The notes under the pieces: model-generated
Database searches by the model: none
What the model was told of the DNA's origin: nothing
What the model saw: the letters and a program-made list of their open reading frames with translations, nothing else
Shown: one piece after another, positions 45,238 through 60,917 of the stretch
Layout: each line of letters opens with the position of its first letter
Position numbering within the stretch: the first letter of the stretch is position 1
Translations under genes and position numbers: made by a program
Assembly (NCBI GenBank): GCA_965262115.1
Contig: OZ253496.1
Location: 1,184,001-1,248,000 of the forward strand
Origin: Nitrospinales bacterium
Lineage (GTDB): Bacteria > Nitrospinota > Nitrospinia > Nitrospinales > VA-1
Direction of reading: 5' to 3'
Length of the DNA stretch: 64,000 bases

Positions 45238-46405
45238 ATGAACTTCCAACTAATCGACTCTGAGTGGGACGACTTATTTAGAAGATCTCTGACTAAAAAC
45301 CATTCTAAGCTTAGAATTATTTGTCCTTTTATCAAAAAGAGTGTCGCTGAATGGCTTTTAACATTTGGGAAACCCCAGGTTCTTCAGATAATCACTCGCT
45401 TCAATCTTAGGGATTTTTGTGGTGGCGTCAGTGATGTATCGGCCCTCAGGTTGTTATTGGAAAATGGCGCGGAGATTCGGGGAGTCCGTAATCTTCACGC
45501 GAAGGTTTATCTCTTCGATAAGGACAGGGTAATTGTTACATCTGCGAACTTAACTAATGCCGCTTTAAGGAAAAATCATGAGTTTGGTTTTGTTTCTGAT
45601 GACTCAAAAATCCATCATACCTGTATGAAATATTTCCAAAATCTATGGAAACGAGCTGGTTCTGACTTATCCATAGATCGTTTGGCGGAATGGGAAAGCA
45701 AGTTGAATAGTGTTGTCATCGCTGGTTCGCGGCCTTCCTTATCGGGCAGTTTGCCTGATGAAGGTGCCGATGCAGGTGTGCCTGCGCCCCCTTTTGTTGC
45801 CCCCTCATTAGTAGAAGAAGCTTCGCAGGCATTCGTAAAATTCTTTGGTACTAGTGCTACACGATCTCTACGAACGACACTCATTTTTGATGAAGTTAAG
45901 AGATCAGGCTCTCATTGGGCATGCACTTACCCCCTGGGAAAGCGTCCCAGGCAAATCGCGGATGGTGACGTCCTCTTTATGGGAAGGTTGGTGAAAGAGC
46001 CAGATGACATTATTATATATGGTCGGGCAATAGGCATACGCCACCAAGAGGGGCGTGATGATGCAACATCTGATGACATATTATATAGACCCTTTAAGAA
46101 GAAATACTCCCATTATAAGAGTTCATCACGCTGAATTTATGGCAGGCGAACTAGAAAATGGTGTGTCGCTCAACAGATTAATGCAGGAACTCCAAGATTA
46201 TTCATTTGCATCGACGAAAAGGAACTCTGAAGCGGGAAAAGGCAATACCAATCCCCGTAGTGCGTATTTACAGCAGGCAGGGGTAAAGTTATCTGACGAG
46301 GGGCACAACTGGCTGAAAAAAGAGTTGGAAATTGTATTCGAGAATTACGGAATGCTGGGGCGAAAAGAACTTGAGAAGTTAGACTGGCCCGAGGTGCCTA
46401 AATGA
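45238..46405 (+). pseudogene. Phospholipase-D (HKD) family nuclease with C-terminal extension, frameshifted
   Basis: LHAKVYLFD...TSANLT...NHEFG; near 46115 CATTATAAGA breaks 'HY-IRVHHAEF', and the tail continues in the 46055-46405 frame. Confidence 0.8.
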
Positions 46406-52843: not shown

Positions 52844-53674
52844 TTAAAAAGTAAATCGATATTTTTCAAATAATTCGAGCGTTACAACTTCTTGCCCTTC
52901 TTTAGAGATCTCTTGTTCAATACGCTTCACCGCCATATTACGTATAAAAGGGATAGGAATGCGGGAAACCTTTTTCAATGCATCGTCCTCCCATTTCAGG
53001 GAAAATTCCATCGGCGCTTCCTTATCCTGACCGATCTGCTCATCGCGCTTGAGGTCCTCTTCGGTCACTTCCATTCCCATTGCCTCTTTAGCCGATGCAG
53101 GCATGATACTGGTGAACACCTCATCAATGATAGAAGGGGTGATCATCTTATCTCCCCGCTGGCGGGCGCGGCCCTCAATGGTCTGTTTAGCCATGCCCAG
53201 AACAAAGGGAGGCACCTTCTCCATTTTCTCCAACGCTTCTTTGCTCCAAGGCATGCCCTGAGGCTCGGCGACTTCCATATAGTTTTTGAATTTTTCAACA
53301 ATTTCGTCTTTTTTCTCGGTACGCATAGAAAGAAAATCTTCGATTTCCTCGATCACCTCCACCTTGCGCGGACTTTGCCGCATTTTTTCCTTCGCCACTT
53401 CGAAGGCATCCATCGTCAGCTCCTCGAAACCAAATCCCTTGACCCTTTTGGACACCAACATCATGGACTCATTACGAATTTCGGTCAGGTAATCAGAGGT
53501 CACTATTTTAAAACCCCTTTTAACGCACCGCTGAACCATCAGCTTGCGGATGCCCGGACGTACAAATTCCGGAGCGTGTTTCACCCTCTCCCACGCATCT
53601 TCAGACCACTCAACGCCATTTTCCCTGGCATAAGGGTGATCGACGTCAGCGATTTTTATTTCTTGCGTTCCCAT
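52844..53674 (-). CDS. Protein with three PCP_red-like (BchB C-terminal) domains
   Basis: Repeats 'WSEDAWERVKHAPEFVR', 'WSKEALEKMEKVPPFV', 'WEDDALKKVSRIPIPFIR'. Confidence 0.8.
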   Translation of the reverse strand: MGTQEIKIADVDHPYARENGVEWSEDAWERVKHAPEFVRPGIRKLMVQRCVKRGFKIVTSDYLTEIRNESMMLVSKRVKGFGFEELTMDAFEVAKEKMRQSPRKVEVIEEIEDFLSMRTEKKDEIVEKFKNYMEVAEPQGMPWSKEALEKMEKVPPFVLGMAKQTIEGRARQRGDKMITPSIIDEVFTSIMPASAKEAMGMEVTEEDLKRDEQIGQDKEAPMEFSLKWEDDALKKVSRIPIPFIRNMAVKRIEQEISKEGQEVVTLELFEKYRFTF

Positions 53675-53982
53675 AAGCCCCACCAAAAATTGAATCTATT
53701 ATATTTATTGGGTCATGACCCTATTTATTTTTTAGATGTAGGACAAGGCTTCAGCTTCGCTGGCTCGTAAACCTGAAGGTTTACCCTCGCATAAAACTTA
53801 TCCTGAATCCACAAGGAGGCACCCCCATTCTACAATTTCTCAAATTCTTTATCAATCTTATAGTACCTCTGACAGCTACAAGATCCGGTAAACATGGAAC
53901 CGTTTTCAAACTACCAAAACAGTTTAATTTTGTTATAATCCTTCCACACTTACAATCCTGTATTTTTTAAGCCTTATCCTTT

Positions 53983-55896
53983 ATGCCCCAGCCGAACTGG
54001 AAATTCCGGATGATGACCAGAGGAGAAATGAACGCCGACCCTATCGAAAGCGAGTTTTTCTCCACCGAGCACTTGGACAGCGTAGCAGATGCCTTGGTTC
54101 GCGAATCCATCCAAAATTCTCTCGATGCCGGGTTACCGGAACAGACGGTTCGGGTAGTCTTTCGTCTGTTTACGGAAAATTCAGATATAAACGGGAACAT
54201 GGTCCATTACCTTGAGGGCCTCCATTCGCATTTAAATGCCGAGCAAAATGGATTGATCAAAGCCCCCTCCATTCAGGCTCCCAAAACCTTTTTAACTATT
54301 GAGGATTACGGCACACGGGGCCTCGAAGGGGACCCCGCCCAAGACGATGATTTTCAGTCCGCCAACAGACTCGATAAAAACGATTTTTTCTATTTTTGGC
54401 GCAATACAGGGCGATCCAAAAAAAGTGGTACGGAGCGGGGTCGCTGGGGTTTAGGGAAAACAGTATTTCAGGCCACTTCCCGAATCAATTCATTTTTTGG
54501 GATGACAGTCAGACAAAGTGATGGATGCCCTTTGTTAATGGGCCATTCCGTTTTAAAGACCCATTTGGTGGAAGGAAAGAAATATTCACCCTATGGATGG
54601 TACGGAATTTTTAGTGAAGACTTTGCTTTGCCGATTGAAGACAAACTCTATCTCAAAAAGTTTTCATCCCAGTTTCAGATCAAGAGATTAGGCAAGGCAG
54701 GCCTTTCGATCATTATCCCTTATCCAGATCCGTCTGTGAAAATTGAAACCATCCTTTCCTCTGTGCTGCTTCATTATTTTTTTCCGATTCTATCCAAAGG
54801 CTTGGTGGTTGAGCTTTATGAGGGCGAAAAACATCTCATAATCGATGGTCAAAAAGTAGATGAACTTTTACAATATGTAGACTTCTCAAAATCCCGACTA
54901 ACCAAAGAGAATTTTCAACACTTGTTCAATTTTACCCGTTGGATACACTCTCTCTTGCCTACTGCCTTCGTAAAGCTCAATCTGCCACCCACACAAGGGG
55001 CTCCCAAATGGAACGAGACTCTTTTTGACCCCGGGGTTTTATCAAAATTACAGGAACAATTTGATCGCAGGGAACGGCTGGCTATTAGAGTTCCTTTGAA
55101 AGTCAAACCCAAAGATAAGACCACGGAAGAAACGTATTTTGATATTTTTATGGAGCGTGATGACCGGCTGGATAAAGTGGAAGATCATTTTATACGGGAG
55201 GGTATCACCATTTCAGGGGTTAGCACTCTCAAACAAAAAGGAATTCGGGTAATTGTTTCAGTCAACGACAAGATCTTGTCCGCGTTTTTGGGGGATTCAG
55301 AAAATCCCGCGCATACCGAATGGCAGGAACGTTCTCCAAAACTCAAGAATCAATACAAACATGGAGTTTCTTGCCTGCGATTCGTCAAAAATAGCCCCAG
55401 AGAAATTGTTCGTTTTTTGAATAAACCCGCTTTGGGCATTGATAAAAAACTTTTGTAAAATTTTTTTTCTGTCGAACCGCCTTCAAATAAGGGCCATGAA
55501 GGAACTTCCGGCGGCAACCAAAAAGATCCGCAAGGTGAACCCCCTGTTCCTCTGGAACTGATAGGTCAAAGCAAGGAGTTTCGGCTTCTTCGTAAGCAAG
55601 GAGGGTTTAGAATCTTATCAAACCCAGAGACCGTTCCTTTACCCAGGGGAATACTCGTTACCGTAGCTTATGAGACAAGGAGGCAAAATCCATTTTCTAA
55701 ATATAGCCTCTTTGATTTCGAGATGGATAAAACCCCAATCAAAATACAAAACATGGGAGCAAACATATGTGCCAAAAGTAAAAATAAGCTCCTTATCCAA
55801 ATAGAAAAGCCGGGGTTTTTTGTAGAAGTCACCGGCTTTGATTTGCATAGAGATTTAAGAGTAAAAGTTGAGCCCGTCGGATCAAGAAATGATTAG
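53983..55896 (+). pseudogene. GHKL/HATPase-like protein (~637 aa) with one in-frame TAA at 55456
   Basis: 'LVRESIQNSLDA', 'IEDYGTRGL', 'GRWGLGK'; frame stays open after the TAA to TAG at 55894-55896, overlapping the next ATG. Confidence 0.8.
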
Positions 55897-56668
55897 AAAA
55901 CTAAATTTTACAGGCAGAAAGAAAATCCCGCGAAGCAGGGTACCCGTGACCTTATTAAACGTGGATAAGCATCCCCAATCTTTCGATGTTCAGTTTGATT
56001 TGTCCGACCTGAATCTACCGCCGAAAGCTACGGTTTTTGTGGAAACATATAAACGGACTTCCTACATGCGTTTCCGATTCGGAACGATTGGCAAATGCAC
56101 GATTCCACCAGATCGTAACCTTGTAGATATCGAACCGAAAGTTACCCCTCTGTTCCGCGTAAAGGTGGTAGACGAAACTTCTCAACAAGGCCGGATTATT
56201 GCTCTTGCGGACAAAATTTTACCGAGAGGGATTGACCAAGGTACGCGAGAAAAAATCAGTCTGTTGCATGTCGAGTTTTCGGAGGATTTGGAAGGGCAAG
56301 TCTGGAGGTTGGATTTGAGCGGAGAATGGCCTGTTATTCAAGTGAATAGTCAAATTGATTTGATTAAAGAAATTGCCAAGTCGGATAGGGCTTTTATTGC
56401 TTTAGTTTATCCAGAAGTTGTCCGGCAAATTTTAAATCATATTATTGAGTCGGATGAAACTGACCCTGAATTAGACGAAGAGGATTGGCCTGGCATGTGG
56501 TTAAATTTTGTTGGTCGTATGCCAGGGGTAGGGTCTCCACCCTTCGGCAGAATAGCGTCCATTAAAAATGACCAAAAGGAATGGATAGAATCGGCTGTGA
56601 TGGCTTTTAGCTACAAATGGCAACTTTTAGATCAATATCAAGAACTACACAAGCGAGAGCAAGAGTGA
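55889..56668 (+). CDS. Hypothetical protein (gene 2 of GHKL operon)
   Basis: ATG 55889 overlaps gene 1 end; MIRKLNFTGRKKI..., 259 aa. Confidence 0.8.
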   Translation: MIRKLNFTGRKKIPRSRVPVTLLNVDKHPQSFDVQFDLSDLNLPPKATVFVETYKRTSYMRFRFGTIGKCTIPPDRNLVDIEPKVTPLFRVKVVDETSQQGRIIALADKILPRGIDQGTREKISLLHVEFSEDLEGQVWRLDLSGEWPVIQVNSQIDLIKEIAKSDRAFIALVYPEVVRQILNHIIESDETDPELDEEDWPGMWLNFVGRMPGVGSPPFGRIASIKNDQKEWIESAVMAFSYKWQLLDQYQELHKREQE

Positions 56669-57387
56669 TGGCTCAGGTACGCAGGCTGAATCCCCAAGGA
56701 ATCGAGCGGTTCAGAGAATATTTGCAAGCCCTCAAGGAGAACCCTGGCGTGGCACCGCCGGTTGGGATTTTGGACGATCCTGATTATTCTGATGTGTTGC
56801 AAGATCAAGTAGAAATTGTAAAAGTGGAATTCAAAAATCGGACTCACATGGTCAAGTATTTGTCTACGGCTTTAGAAAACTTGAACACCCAATTAGGAGC
56901 AGAAAATCAAGGATTATGGAGTTGGTTATCCCTTTTTTATTTTGATCAGGTTTGCCCGGAGGATTTGAGCGGATGCCGAAAAGCTGGCATGGATTATCGA
57001 CATATTCTGGAGAAGGGATACCGACACCGACACCGACACCGACATCTCTTAGCGGGTCCATACATAACCTATCAAATGTATAGAGAAAAGGCTCGATTGC
57101 TCTTGCATGGTCTACTTCATCAGGAAAATAAAATTCATCATGAACTTGCGGCAAGGCAGGAGTTTATTACAAATCGAAGCATTATAGAAGCAACCGACAC
57201 CCTTTATTTTGATAAGGATAAAAATAAACCCAAAGCGGGGATTCTATCGAAAACCAGAGCGGACTCATTATTACGGTTTGTTGACGTAATACAGCAATTA
57301 GAATTAAATTATGATCTTTACAGCATGGAGGCTCAGGAAATCATTTCCCTTTTGCCGAATGAATTTAACGGGTCGGGGACTGTTTGA
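56668..57387 (+). CDS. Hypothetical protein (gene 3 of GHKL operon)
   Basis: TGATG coupling; MAQVRRLNPQGIERF..., 'GLWSWLSLFYFDQVC', 'RHLLAGP', 'QQLELNYDL'. Confidence 0.8.
   Translation: MAQVRRLNPQGIERFREYLQALKENPGVAPPVGILDDPDYSDVLQDQVEIVKVEFKNRTHMVKYLSTALENLNTQLGAENQGLWSWLSLFYFDQVCPEDLSGCRKAGMDYRHILEKGYRHRHRHRHLLAGPYITYQMYREKARLLLHGLLHQENKIHHELAARQEFITNRSIIEATDTLYFDKDKNKPKAGILSKTRADSLLRFVDVIQQLELNYDLYSMEAQEIISLLPNEFNGSGTV
57021..57044 (+). repeat. In-frame hexanucleotide microsatellite (CCGACA)x4
   Basis: Encodes RHRHRHRH within gene 3. Confidence 0.9.
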
Positions 57388-57704
57388 TTATCAACCCGGC
57401 AATTAAAACCACAATTTTTCCAAAACCCGTTTGAATGCGAATCCAGGCTTTAGCCGGTTGCCAGACAGTACCAATGGTTTTGAATGCAAAAGAATTCCCC
57501 TTAGCTTGTTGCTACGGAGTTTCCTCTAATTTTCCCCTTGTTAATGAGGCCTTTGCATACAGTTAGATCCCATTGACCAAGGCGGATATCCTTCTGCCGA
57601 AAGCTCACCAAGATGACAATACAAATGTCCCTAGGGTGTCATTCCGCTATGAAACAGACGATCTACTACTACCCACCAACATGGTAAAACGTGTTTAATT
57701 GCCT

Positions 57705-60700
57705 ATGCAACGTTCTCCTGTCATTTATTTTTTATTTTTCATTTCCGGCATCACCGCGCTGACTTATGAAATCGTCTGGACCCGGATGCTGACTCTGGTG
57801 TTCGGGCATACCGTGTTTTCTGTATCGGTAGTGCTGGCAGCATTCATGGCAGGTTTAGGTCTGGGCAGTTACCTGTTCGGCTATGCCGTCGACCGGTTAC
57901 CGGAAACAAACGGTTCAGGAAAAGCCGCTCTCCTTCTCTATGGCTGGATAGAAATCCTGATTTTTGCCAGTGGGGCCCTGCTCTCTCTCTTATTCGCCAA
58001 TTTTTCGGGAATCTATGCCTCCCTGCACAGTTTCATCCCCGAATCGATTCCCTTGCAGAATTTGATAAAAATGTTGTTCGCCTTTGGGATGATGCTGATC
58101 CCCACCACCTTCATGGGAGCAACCCTGCCGATCATCAGTAAATACTGCGTTACCGATGACAGCCGGATGGGAACTCAAGTGAGCCTGCTCTATGCGCTCA
58201 ACACCCTGGGCGCCGCAGTCGGTTGTCTGATGACCGGATTCTTCCTGATGGGCACGTTCGGAGTTCTGCAAACCGTTCTTCTGGCAGCAGGGGCAAACCT
58301 GCTGATCGGGATCAGCGCACTGAGAATTTATCTGGAAACCGTTCCCGGCGCCGACTGGAAGTTTCGACTCCCGCCCTTACGGGTACCGCGCATCGACTTG
58401 AATGCGGACCAGAAATTCTGGATGGGCATCAGCTTTATCTGCGGATTCACGGCTTTGGCCTATGAAGTGTTATGGACCCGGCTACTGGTGTTCAGTATCG
58501 CCAGCACCGTCTATTCCTTCAGCATGATGCTCACGGTCTTTCTTCTGGGAATCTTTTTGGGAAGCCTGTTGTTGATCCCTCTGGCATCGCGGATCCATAA
58601 CATCCGCACCGCCTTGTTAATCCTGCAAGCCAGCGCCGGTCTTTACGCGATCGGCTCCCTGTACGGACTCGAGTCCATCCTTTCCGCTCCCTGGAACGGC
58701 TACAACTTGACCGATCCGGCCACAGCGTTTTTGCGCTACTTCAAAGATTCCGCCGGACTCATGCTGATACCCACCCTGCTGTTGGGCATGTGTTTTCCCC
58801 TGTTGATAAAAATAGTTTCCGGCGGACATCAAAACGTCGGCAAGGCCACCGGCCAGATCTATTCGGCAAATACACTGGGGGCGATTTTCGGATCGTTATG
58901 CGCGGGCTTCCTGTTGCTGCCAAATCTGGGAAGCCAGGTCAGCCTGACCCTGATCGCCACCCTGAACATGCTGACCACGGTTTTACTGTTCCGCACCGGA
59001 AACTATATGACCCCGGCAGTGCGCAAGGGGTTGACCGTCGTGTTCACGGCACTGATCCTCTTTGTCAACATGGCTATTCCCCACGATTTATTAAATCCGT
59101 TTTTCATGCGAGACAGCGCCGGCAAACGCAACATTAAAAAGCTGATGTATTTCGAGGAGGGCCTCTCTGATACTGTGGCCGTGTTCAGAGACGATTATGG
59201 CGTTCTCGACCCGACTGCAAAGCGGTTGATCACCAACGGCATTTCCATGTCTGCCTCCAACCTGATCGCAACACGCTACATGAAACTGTTCGCCCATGTT
59301 CCCATCCTGTTGGTGGATCAACCCGATGACGTGCTGGTGGTCTGCTTTGGAACCGGGCAAACCACAGGCGCGGCGGCCATTCACCCGCGCGTCAAATCCG
59401 TCGACAGCCTGGAACTGTCTACCAGTGTCATCAACGCGGGAAAAATGTTTGCCGACCAGAACCATCAGGCGCTTGACAACCCCAAAATAAATTTTGTCAT
59501 TCAGGATGGCAGGAATCACCTTCTGACCACCCACAAACATTACGACGTCATCACTTCCGAGCCACCGCCTCCCCGCACCGCGTTCACCGTAAACCTGTAT
59601 ACCCGGGAGTATTATGAGCTCCAGAAAAGTCGCCTGAAACCAGGAGGAATCGCCGCGCAATGGATTCCCCTCCACAGTCAGGGAGAAGAAGAAGTGGATA
59701 TGCACTTCAGAACCTTCCAATCCGTTTTCCCCTACACCATGGGCTGGCTTTCGGTGGCGAACGAAATTCTTATTATCGGGTCTGATCAACCGATCCGAAT
59801 TGATTTTGAAAAACTTAAAGTCCGCCTGGAAGAACCCGAAATTAAAAAAGCGCTGGCTGATATTGAAATCCCCAATATCTTTTCCTTTCTCAGCAATATC
59901 TGGCTGCTGGATGAACAAATTCAGGCTTTAGGCAAGGGTCACCCCCTTATCACCGACAACCATCCCGCTATTGAGTTTTATCTCGACCTGGGGAATGTGA
60001 TCGACGTGTCCGGAAGAGAGAAATATGTATTCAACCGGGCTTCTTTCGATCAAATTGCCAACCATGTGGAGAATCTTTCCGCGACAGACCGTATGACTCT
60101 GAGGACCTATTACCAGGCCATGGATCTTTATCAACGCGGTGTCATGTACAGCAACCGGGGACAACTGCTTAAAGCATTGAGCTTGATAGAAGACAACAAT
60201 CTCGTTCGCTACCATCTGCAGGCGGGCAAAGATCAGATGGCCCGGCTGATCAAACAGGTGGAGCAGAACCCTGAAGTGATCGAGAACCTGCTCAACCTGG
60301 GCCACAGCTATTATCAAGTCGGCGAATATGAGAAAAGTGCTGAAATCCTAAAAATGGTTTTGGCAAAACATCCGAAATTGAGTTTCGCCCACCTGTACAT
60401 GGGGTACAACCTTTTGGAACTGGGGAAAAAAGAAGAAGCCCTGAACTATTTCAAGAGCACGGCAAAAAATGACCCGCGCCAAATGGGAACCGTGATGCGG
60501 GAAATTGGACTGGTCAACCTGCTTCAGCAAGCGGAAAAAAAATCAGACGACAAGAGTCTCCAGCGATCGGTGGCCGAATTTTACAATATCAAAAATGAAT
60601 ATCTGAAATCTCTGGAATACTCCCTCAAATCTCTTGAGGAAGACCCTATGAATCTCAAAGTTTTGCAAAGCATCGTTTTCAGTTACCGAGGTCTGGGCGA

Positions 60701-60917
60701 AGCCAAAGAAGTGCTTATGTATGGCAACCGCTACAGCCTGATAGACCCCGATGAAATTCACCTGCAGTTCATCATGGGAGAAATTTATACCAAGCTCCTT
60801 AAATGCCAGAAAGCCATCCCACTACTGAAAAATGTTTTGAAAAAAGACGACACCTACCGCAACGCCCAAAACCTTTTGGACTCCTGTGAAAATTCCACAG
60901 AAACACCAGATATTTAG
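57705..60917 (+). CDS. Fused membrane domain / spermidine-synthase-like methyltransferase with TPR tail
   Basis: 'SG..AL.YEIVW.R', 'LYALNTLGA', 'VLVVCFGTGQT', 'DGRNHL...YDVITSEPP', 'QWIP', TPR helices. Confidence 0.9.
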   Translation: MQRSPVIYFLFFISGITALTYEIVWTRMLTLVFGHTVFSVSVVLAAFMAGLGLGSYLFGYAVDRLPETNGSGKAALLLYGWIEILIFASGALLSLLFANFSGIYASLHSFIPESIPLQNLIKMLFAFGMMLIPTTFMGATLPIISKYCVTDDSRMGTQVSLLYALNTLGAAVGCLMTGFFLMGTFGVLQTVLLAAGANLLIGISALRIYLETVPGADWKFRLPPLRVPRIDLNADQKFWMGISFICGFTALAYEVLWTRLLVFSIASTVYSFSMMLTVFLLGIFLGSLLLIPLASRIHNIRTALLILQASAGLYAIGSLYGLESILSAPWNGYNLTDPATAFLRYFKDSAGLMLIPTLLLGMCFPLLIKIVSGGHQNVGKATGQIYSANTLGAIFGSLCAGFLLLPNLGSQVSLTLIATLNMLTTVLLFRTGNYMTPAVRKGLTVVFTALILFVNMAIPHDLLNPFFMRDSAGKRNIKKLMYFEEGLSDTVAVFRDDYGVLDPTAKRLITNGISMSASNLIATRYMKLFAHVPILLVDQPDDVLVVCFGTGQTTGAAAIHPRVKSVDSLELSTSVINAGKMFADQNHQALDNPKINFVIQDGRNHLLTTHKHYDVITSEPPPPRTAFTVNLYTREYYELQKSRLKPGGIAAQWIPLHSQGEEEVDMHFRTFQSVFPYTMGWLSVANEILIIGSDQPIRIDFEKLKVRLEEPEIKKALADIEIPNIFSFLSNIWLLDEQIQALGKGHPLITDNHPAIEFYLDLGNVIDVSGREKYVFNRASFDQIANHVENLSATDRMTLRTYYQAMDLYQRGVMYSNRGQLLKALSLIEDNNLVRYHLQAGKDQMARLIKQVEQNPEVIENLLNLGHSYYQVGEYEKSAEILKMVLAKHPKLSFAHLYMGYNLLELGKKEEALNYFKSTAKNDPRQMGTVMREIGLVNLLQQAEKKSDDKSLQRSVAEFYNIKNEYLKSLEYSLKSLEEDPMNLKVLQSIVFSYRGLGEAKEVLMYGNRYSLIDPDEIHLQFIMGEIYTKLLKCQKAIPLLKNVLKKDDTYRNAQNLLDSCENSTETPDI

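Follow-up and report, generated by a model that had tools for sequence, protein, structure and literature searches.

What does a coupled three-gene operon led by a GHKL-like ATPase do in a marine Nitrospinales bacterium? The question is raised by a 64,000-nucleotide stretch of assembly GCA_965262115.1 (contig OZ253496.1, positions 1,184,001 to 1,248,000 of the forward strand; hereafter, the window), in which genes A, B and C, here called the trio, occupy positions 53983-57387. An original prediction, made from the sequence of the window, regarded the operon as a candidate mobile defence module that it could not match to a named system, and noted that neither a methyltransferase nor a clear nuclease lies next to it. 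The latter holds: no methylase or nuclease gene adjoins the trio in the window. In this study, we found that the trio is a divergent sister clade of the candidate system PADLOC PDC-M33, a relationship that sequence comparisons make firm for A and C. Its methylase-free branch is new; the wider family is already catalogued. The explanation that we prefer, and to which we give about an even chance, is that the trio would be a laterally acquired, ATP-driven clamp acting on invading DNA without a cognate methylase or a recognised nuclease, of which the window's copy is likely inactive.

Organization, insertion site and distribution of the trio

All three genes are on the + strand. Gene A (53983-55896, 637 codons, one internal stop) encodes a paraMORC2-like GHKL ATPase. 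Gene B (55889-56668) encodes a protein of 259 amino acids with an Ig/FN3-like N-terminal beta-sandwich and an alpha/beta C-terminal domain, and gene C (56668-57387) a helical protein of 239 amino acids that is a remote homolog of DUF6339/PDC-M33C. The end of A (TAG, 55894-55896) overlaps the start of B (ATG, 55889-55891) and the B-C junction is TGATG at 56666-56670, so the coupled operon with overlapping stops and starts is present at the coordinates originally given.

Conservation of this arrangement was analyzed in 74 genome loci collected via C and in the best 80 of 431 metagenome loci collected via A. Genes A and B precede C in 59 of the 62 C-anchored loci with enough flank; the exceptions are L008 and L060, which have no A, and the short fragment L074. 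In the A-anchored set, all 54 loci with enough flank have B and C behind A. The neighbourhood comparison proposed with the original prediction thus shows that the trio co-occurs. Its hosts include members of Nitrospinota, Nitrospirota, Desulfobacterota, Myxococcota, Planctomycetota, Chloroflexota and Pseudomonadota, and the closest named homologs are from Nitrospinales. No relative of A was found in viral contigs. Within the order, C was found in 7 of 61 genomes (the window's included); of the 22 other genomes of the genus, 1 had it. The same-genus genome G007 carries an intact trio at a different site (G007:C1, near 1,041,000-1,044,700).

The site in the window could be compared directly with that in relatives. 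The conserved gene to the left (52844-53686, - strand), which has a weak PDB match to Asr4154, is present in 20 of the 22 other same-genus genomes at 87-96% identity. The gene to the right (57699-60917, + strand) encodes a membrane/spermidine-synthase-like/TPR fusion, whose PDB matches are spermidine synthases and TPR proteins; it adjoins the left gene in 17 of these 20 genomes, and the other three end at a contig edge. At the sites without the cassette, the two genes are separated by approximately 70-300 bases in 16 genomes and by 1.25 kb in one (G013). The same-genus genomes align to the window up to about position 53709 and again from about 57704. Since the cassette is absent from the site in 17 of 17 comparable genomes, the segment 53710-57703, which comprises the cassette and its own intergenic DNA and has no strand, is an insertion of about 4 kb between conserved genes, as had been claimed. 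Both flanking genes are outside the cassette.

Base composition points in the same direction as the earlier description of the operon as AT-rich, but to a modest extent. The guanine-plus-cytosine (GC) content of the cassette is 0.431 against 0.468 in the genome and 0.474 and 0.503 in the flanking genes, which corresponds to the 10th percentile of 5,362 same-size windows; GC content at third codon positions (GC3) is 0.41, compared with 0.56 and 0.62 in the flanking genes. REP-like (repetitive extragenic palindromic) remnants, also reported at the flanks, could not be recovered. No repeat family was detected at either flank in the window's genome, the flanks gave 12 and 39 short-word matches compared with 6-27 and 6-40 in 20 shuffles each, and the sole structure was a 7-bp hairpin near 53767-53787. 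Overall, the comparisons support the view that the trio is a laterally acquired, patchy, co-inherited unit.

In G013, the same intergenic site is occupied by an open reading frame (ORF) of 239 amino acids with an HNH motif read by eye (L174:2453-3169, - strand), which had no PADLOC match at E<=1e-30. Given this ORF, the shared site may be an insertion hotspot.

Protein A is likely a GHKL ATPase

GHKL-like motifs were noticed in A at 54100 (RESIQNSLD), 54301 (EDYGTRGL) and 54439 (GRWGLGKT), and conservation bears out their original assignment as N-, G1- and G2-boxes. In 66 non-redundant relatives of A, the N-box (RExxQNxxD) is kept in 64, a DxGTxGL-type G1-box in 55 and the G2-box (GxxGxGK) in 66. 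An ExPxHxxW motif, located at residue 440 of the window's protein, is found in 64 of the 66. The architecture of A includes an N-terminal GHKL domain, an S5-like region with ENPxHxxW and a C-terminal domain, and an invariant Arg (R398 of homolog P0248) would fit the basic residue described for S5 domains. The MORC-specific S5 motif GhXhhpXXRhl, searched for with a regular expression, was found in none of the 66 relatives.

When a broad profile of the N-terminal part of A was compared with the PDB at E<=10, 11 of 11 matches were GyrB/ParE, with a best E of 0.046 and with the N-box and G2-box aligned. This support is weak but one-sided, and A is likely a MORC/MutL-type GHKL ATPase. No significant match of A, B or C was found in Pfam and NCBIfam, no nuclease family was matched by any of them in Pfam, PADLOC or NCBIfam, and PDB sequence searches with close alignments of the trio proteins gave no match. 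The ESM Atlas returned only unnamed clusters for A.

A total of 1,609 homologs of A were identified, the best 120 of which are mostly 620-650 amino acids long. Homologs of 865-876 amino acids were considered as possible A-B or A-C fusions. This was rejected, as the three that were read (P0250, P0251 and P0254) carry an acidic N-terminal extension of approximately 240 amino acids that replaces the usual start.

The trio is a divergent sister clade of PDC-M33

Although the original prediction could not match the operon to a named system, it matches, via A and C, a catalogued candidate, PADLOC PDC-M33, which consists of A, B and a DUF6339 protein. The window's A matches the PDC-M33A model with E 3.1e-21 over residues 24-316, although canonical members score far higher. 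In profile-profile comparisons, the A family matched M33A proteins with P 99.9, E 6e-34 and 425 columns, and the C family matched DUF6339/PDC-M33C (hhalign) with P 93, E 3e-7 and 222 columns, spanning the length of C. The match between the B family and PDC-M33B was weak (hhalign, P 6, E 0.006, 51 columns; cross controls E 0.1-0.7).

Direct searches with hidden Markov models gave a different picture for B and C. None of 91 window-type B proteins matched the PADLOC PDC-M33B model and none of 96 window-type C proteins matched PDC-M33C, nor did any match PF19866 above cut-off; because of these absent direct matches, the homology of C to DUF6339 is regarded as remote. One C homolog carried a precomputed PF19866 tag that rescanning did not reproduce. 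Since only the A model matches, a three-model PADLOC call would fail, and for the same reason we filed the trio as a divergent sister clade instead of calling it a PDC-M33 member.

Distant relatives of A on plasmids also occur in three-gene runs that end in a DUF6339 gene, and five of these runs match all three PADLOC models, PDC-M33A, B and C. In the 10 PDC-M33-type plasmid loci examined, a defence-type neighbour was present in all 10 and a C5 methylase in 6. Five genomes with outer-branch copies of the trio gave no match to PF19866, in a search in which no control gave a signal either. A full-text search found no published work on PDC-M33 or DUF6339. In rows of a supplement of PMC12418389, PDC-M33 is given as 'Hypothetical/PDC' with activity 'ND'.

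A clade that has parted from Dcm and Vsr

Among the clustered loci of the wider trio family, 29 contain a C5 methylase (Dcm), 20 contain Vsr and 7 an EcoRII-like enzyme. The relation of these contexts to the phylogeny of A was examined with FastTree, using 109 A proteins rooted on PDC-M33A, with near-duplicates and fragmented copies omitted and the window's A cut at its stop; close relatives are over-represented in this tree, and at two places in it long branches join. The window falls in a clade of 71 rows that extends over several phyla (SH-like support 96). None of the 24 rows of this clade with at least 3 kb on both sides has Dcm within 3 kb. A further 46 rows have short flanks, in which no Dcm was seen, and in L015 Dcm is 6.6 kb away. 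Outside the clade, Dcm is located within 3 kb in 24 of the 26 labelled rows. In addition, a gene of approximately 75 amino acids is found upstream of the trio in 8 loci, none of which, among those placed, belongs to the window's clade, and it was not found in the window's genome. As judged from the tree, the window's clade has lost the adjoining Dcm, Vsr and small gene of the outer branches. The deepest-branching window-type trio is located on an unannotated Rhizobium plasmid (L157:7875-11437), with a C5-methylase-like ORF, its motif read by eye, about 2.6 kb downstream.

The frequency of Vsr and Dcm in these loci would be expected if the trio served DNA maintenance, i.e., if in the outer branches it assisted very-short-patch repair of methylated cytosines in the manner of MutL and in the window's clade had been domesticated for a different chromosomal task. 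The part of Iyer, Abhiman and Aravind (2008; PMC2292703) that treats paraMORCs allows for the recruitment of some of them to repair, one subclade of the trio has a fixed housekeeping-like context, and defence enrichment in the window's clade is modest (both described below). The same contexts also speak against this explanation, as no Vsr or Dcm is located beside the trio in the window's clade and several hosts have no C5 methylase match. Presence of the cassette in 1 of 22 other same-genus genomes is unlike a core repair function, and PDC systems are defined, in the section of the preprint by Payne et al. (bioRxiv 10.1101/2024.01.29.577857) on which we draw, by embedding in BREX, DISARM or type I restriction-modification loci. 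We consider a maintenance role quite unlikely.

Dependence of the trio on a C5 methylase elsewhere in the genome is not supported. Within the order, such a methylase was found in 3 of 7 genomes with the trio compared with 25 of 54 trio-less genomes; it was also found in 2 of 5 further trio hosts. Four trio genomes of the order (86-98% complete) have no C5 methylase match and hold intact trios; because the trio is intact in genomes where none was found, it appears to need no C5 methylase elsewhere. In the window's own genome (G000:C1), two C5 methylase matches are full-length and a third, truncated one has a Vsr next to it; all of them are located far from the trio (517401-518919, 1613314-1614393 and 2000179-2001135).

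This last genome, in which C5 methylases coexist with a broken trio, is what modification-dependent, type IV-like restriction could produce: the methylase-free clade would attack modified incoming DNA, and a host cytosine methylase would select for breakage. Consistent with this, among 12 genomes examined, interrupted trios occur in 2 of the 5 that have a C5 methylase and in 0 of the 7 without. These numbers are tiny, however, and in three genomes an intact trio coexists with a C5 methylase. The outer branches adjoin Dcm, which points to the opposite polarity, and structural searches found no methyl-reader fold in B or C, the matches of B covering residues 8-116 only. We regard this explanation as very unlikely.

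Proteins B and C and the predicted complex

The AlphaFold model of B has a predicted local distance difference test score (pLDDT) of 90.7. Its Ig/FN3-like sandwich, a common arrangement, gave a best Z of 8.2 with a root-mean-square deviation of 3.1 over 98 residues. B had no match in Pfam, PADLOC or NCBIfam. Protein C, mostly helical, was modelled with a pLDDT of 94.3. Foldseek at E<=0.001 returned no match for B or C, and a wide structural search of 48,161 chains with C gave none at Z>=5 (best Z 4.1, with rows mostly covering residues 162-239), a null result that proves neither a different nor a new fold. The ESM Atlas had no usable match for C. The C family comprises 1,843 clusters at 50% identity, and two of its members (P0375 and P0444) are fused to a C-terminal zinc ribbon. 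An apparent homology between B and C in joint clustering was rejected as a chaining artefact (E 0.05).

To model the complex, we used an intact cognate set consisting of residues 250-622 of A together with C and B. The A-B-C model scores 0.66 compared with 0.26 for the best control, and replacing A lowers the score to 0.26; for comparison, 116 of 157 solved complexes attained the mark of 0.66, as did 2 of 215 mismatched pairs, a calibration that is only rough for a three-chain job. Runs agree in at least 81% of contacts and partner pLDDT is at least 78. In the model, the parts of A touched by B are 470-492, 519-528 and 605-616, and those of C are mainly 211-222. B is predicted to dock on the linker helix and C-terminal domain of A and to bind the C-terminal TxDL segment of C, thereby bridging the two; the predicted contacts include R3, N6, T8 and R10 near the N terminus of B and T212 and D214 of C. 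Conservation is somewhat higher at the interface than elsewhere (0.59-0.62 compared with 0.47-0.50).

Outside the predicted interface, C has six near-invariant polar residues, R123, H124, Y178, R201, Q208 and E230 (P0130 numbering). This set, together with the lack of a fold match, is what would be expected of an effector: A would sense a phage protein or DNA structure and, via B, switch on C, a new nuclease or toxin, resulting in DNA cleavage or abortive infection. The set is mostly basic and aromatic, however, with no acidic cluster typical of metal nucleases, and is more readily reconciled with binding of DNA than with a known metal nuclease. In addition, the RH and Tyr positions of C are not clearly kept in DUF6339 proteins in the profile alignment. 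Together with the small share of broken loci described below, these data make effector-type defence unlikely in our judgement; the explanation that we favor remains a DNA clamp in which C would contribute DNA binding.

Inactivated copies and purifying selection

The sole internal stop of A is a TAA at 55456-55458 (+ strand), codon 492. Three studies provided runs X1, X2 and X5, of which X1 or X2 may underlie the assembly itself, and the contigs of these runs have no alternative base at this position; because they are concordant, an assembly error was rejected as the cause and the TAA is taken as a real strain allele. Run X6 represents a near strain, which over 4,001 bases differs by 97 substitutions and 8 gap letters. 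It reads G at 55456 (GAA), which leaves A open, and has one extra base behind 56703, which causes a +1 frameshift in C (one contig, one run); it also has an in-frame 6-base loss. Two close strains have therefore inactivated the cassette in different genes, by a stop in A and by a frameshift in C. A short GACACC repeat within C (window 57020-57045) encodes an RHRHRH run, and run X6 has one unit fewer.

The window's stop corresponds in P0248 to residue 485, which is located within the A-B interface of the model. Truncated at this point, A would be left without most of the surface on which B is predicted to dock. The window's copy is probably inactive, broken by a real nonsense allele. Overall, 11 of 108 complete loci are interrupted and 97 are intact. 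In another interrupted locus, L033, B is split by an insert of about 1.3 kb with a 406-amino-acid ORF (L033:8330-9666), and this genome has a C5 methylase.

Different inactivating lesions in two near-identical strains would fit a costly system, as expected for an effector, but the fraction of broken loci is low. The two broken copies would also agree with the trio being an orphaned, decaying remnant of a methylase-linked restriction system that is functionless in the window's clade. The large majority of intact loci and the breadth of the clade, with its 71 rows in several phyla, argue against decay, and so does the ratio of nonsynonymous to synonymous substitution rates (dN/dS). This ratio is 0.04-0.23 in nine computable methylase-free pairs (one pair was saturated) and 0.18-0.21 between the window and L076. 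These values indicate that the methylase-free clade is under purifying selection and already largely refute the decay explanation, which we consider highly improbable.

Proposed function and points against it

MutL, GyrB and MORC proteins dimerise and close on DNA upon ATP binding. By analogy, in the preferred explanation A would dimerise and close on DNA when it binds ATP; clamp-like closure on DNA has also been proposed for paraMORCs in the corresponding part of PMC2292703. The products of A, B and C would form one complex, as the model predicts, and the conserved Arg, His and Tyr residues of C may bind DNA. The complex would trap or loop invader DNA, from phage or another source, rather than cut it. 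In the outer branches the linked methylase could mark self, and the methylase-free clade would have to use another cue.

Several points weigh against this explanation. No published report of anti-phage activity of the trio or of PDC-M33 was found. A profile of A compared with a local profile of five neighbouring HATPase_c_3 proteins gave no significant alignment. No recognised nuclease motif was found in C, which may nevertheless be a new nuclease or other enzyme. At the window's site, no integrase, target duplication or mobility-explaining repeat was seen, so mobility of the cassette is inferred from distribution alone. In nine loci that form one subclade (L007, L010, L011, L111, L112, L118, L119, L120 and L129), the trio is located downstream of the same housekeeping-like gene set, and this fixed context suggests vertical inheritance or domestication.

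Linkage to defence genes in the window's clade is also modest. It was examined in 30 wide loci without adjacent Dcm, using crude ORF calls and PADLOC matches at E<=1e-30, in a set whose kin are not independent. Matches were found in 18 of 120 nearest ORFs (in 12 loci); among the distant ORFs of these loci the count was 10 of 101, and in the background it was 8 of 128. The background consisted of seven arbitrary 20-kb regions, and five of its eight matches are one CRISPR operon. For the nearest ORFs, Fisher p was 0.037 compared with the background and 0.31 compared with the distant ORFs, and 18 of the 30 loci had no PADLOC match among adjacent genes. The neighbours of some methylase-free copies include type I and III restriction genes, HKD-SNF2 helicases, AbiE, SoFic and Cas3. 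Of the original idea of a mobile defence module, the patchy, laterally acquired, coupled trio with its GHKL ATPase and the restriction-modification link of the wider family stand, whereas the defence link of its own clade is modest, no integrase or mobility-explaining repeat was found at its site and the copy is broken.

Within the preferred explanation, we tentatively propose a more specific version, which is possible but is put forward with reserve. The trio would be a nuclease-free, three-subunit ATP clamp freed from DNA methylation. An adaptor with an Ig fold would link its ATPase to a subunit that binds DNA and whose fold is undescribed, and the clamp would trap invading DNA and thereby silence or sequester it. 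If true, this would be a bacterial counterpart of plant and animal MORC silencing, distributed across Nitrospinota, Nitrospirota and Desulfobacterota and not callable by the three PDC-M33 models of PADLOC, and the family of C, with about 1,800 clusters, would represent a new fold. Defence by the trio without a methylase or nuclease would pose the question of how self and non-self are discriminated, and would bear on the origin of eukaryotic MORC silencing. With only three genes, many intact natural copies, and methylase-linked and methylase-free branches, the trio is a compact test case for the proposed paraMORC role.

Two regions outside the cassette are described here for completeness. In the window, a phospholipase-D-type gene at 45238-46405 (+ strand, GC3 0.39) is split by a frameshift, and its two pieces match one PADLOC DrmC model at positions 4-291 (E 2e-84) and 291-384 (E 7e-28). 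Besides the trio, the window thus holds another defence-like gene that is broken, at a distance of about 7.5 kb. In G007, the background region L201:6445-12875 holds a type I-F variant CRISPR-Cas operon (Cas1, Cas3fv, Cas7fv, Cas5fv and Cas6f).

Comparison with known systems

The trio differs from type II restriction-modification in that no cognate methylase or endonuclease adjoins it in the window. With MutL-Vsr very-short-patch repair, as outlined in the relevant passages of PMC2292703, it shares a GHKL ATPase near Dcm and Vsr in the outer branches; it differs in the lack of adjoining Vsr and Dcm in the window's clade, in being a patchy inserted cassette and in having two dedicated partners. 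Tiamat and other anti-phage GHL ATPases (bioRxiv 10.64898/2026.09.30.754977, cited for its sections on these proteins) employ a GHL clamp ATPase in defence, as is proposed here for the trio, often near methylases and helicases. Tiamat, however, is a single large ATPase-nuclease from a separate clade, whereas in the trio no nuclease is recognised and the PADLOC model TmtA finds no match. The same 2026 preprint still terms the defence role of paraMORCs proposed.

Among MORC-like ATPases, classical prokaryotic MORC proteins are distinguished from A by the S5 motif GhXhhpXXRhl, which its relatives lack. The paraMORC2 family of GHKL and S5 ATPases is defined by an ExxxH motif late in the S5 domain (Iyer, Abhiman and Aravind, 2008; PMC2292703, from which the following is taken in part). 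Compared by description, A resembles paraMORC2 in its GHKL motifs, in an ExxxH located later in the protein and in the absence of the MORC-specific motif, and the trio resembles it in sporadic distribution and association with Dcm and Vsr. ParaMORC2 is described as occurring mainly in cyanobacteria and Gram-positives, and paraMORC2-5 in operons that resemble MORC/SFII-helicase neighbourhoods; paraMORC ATPases were proposed there to act in restriction systems. The trio differs in having no fixed helicase, its fixed partners being B and C.

Finally, PDC-M33, in which C is DUF6339 (PF19866), differs from the window's clade, which is without Dcm, Vsr and the small gene and in which B homology is weak. 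The two have in common three coupled genes of similar size in the order A-B-C, and the outer branches of the trio family share with PDC-M33 the Dcm/Vsr/restriction context and the upstream gene of approximately 75 amino acids.

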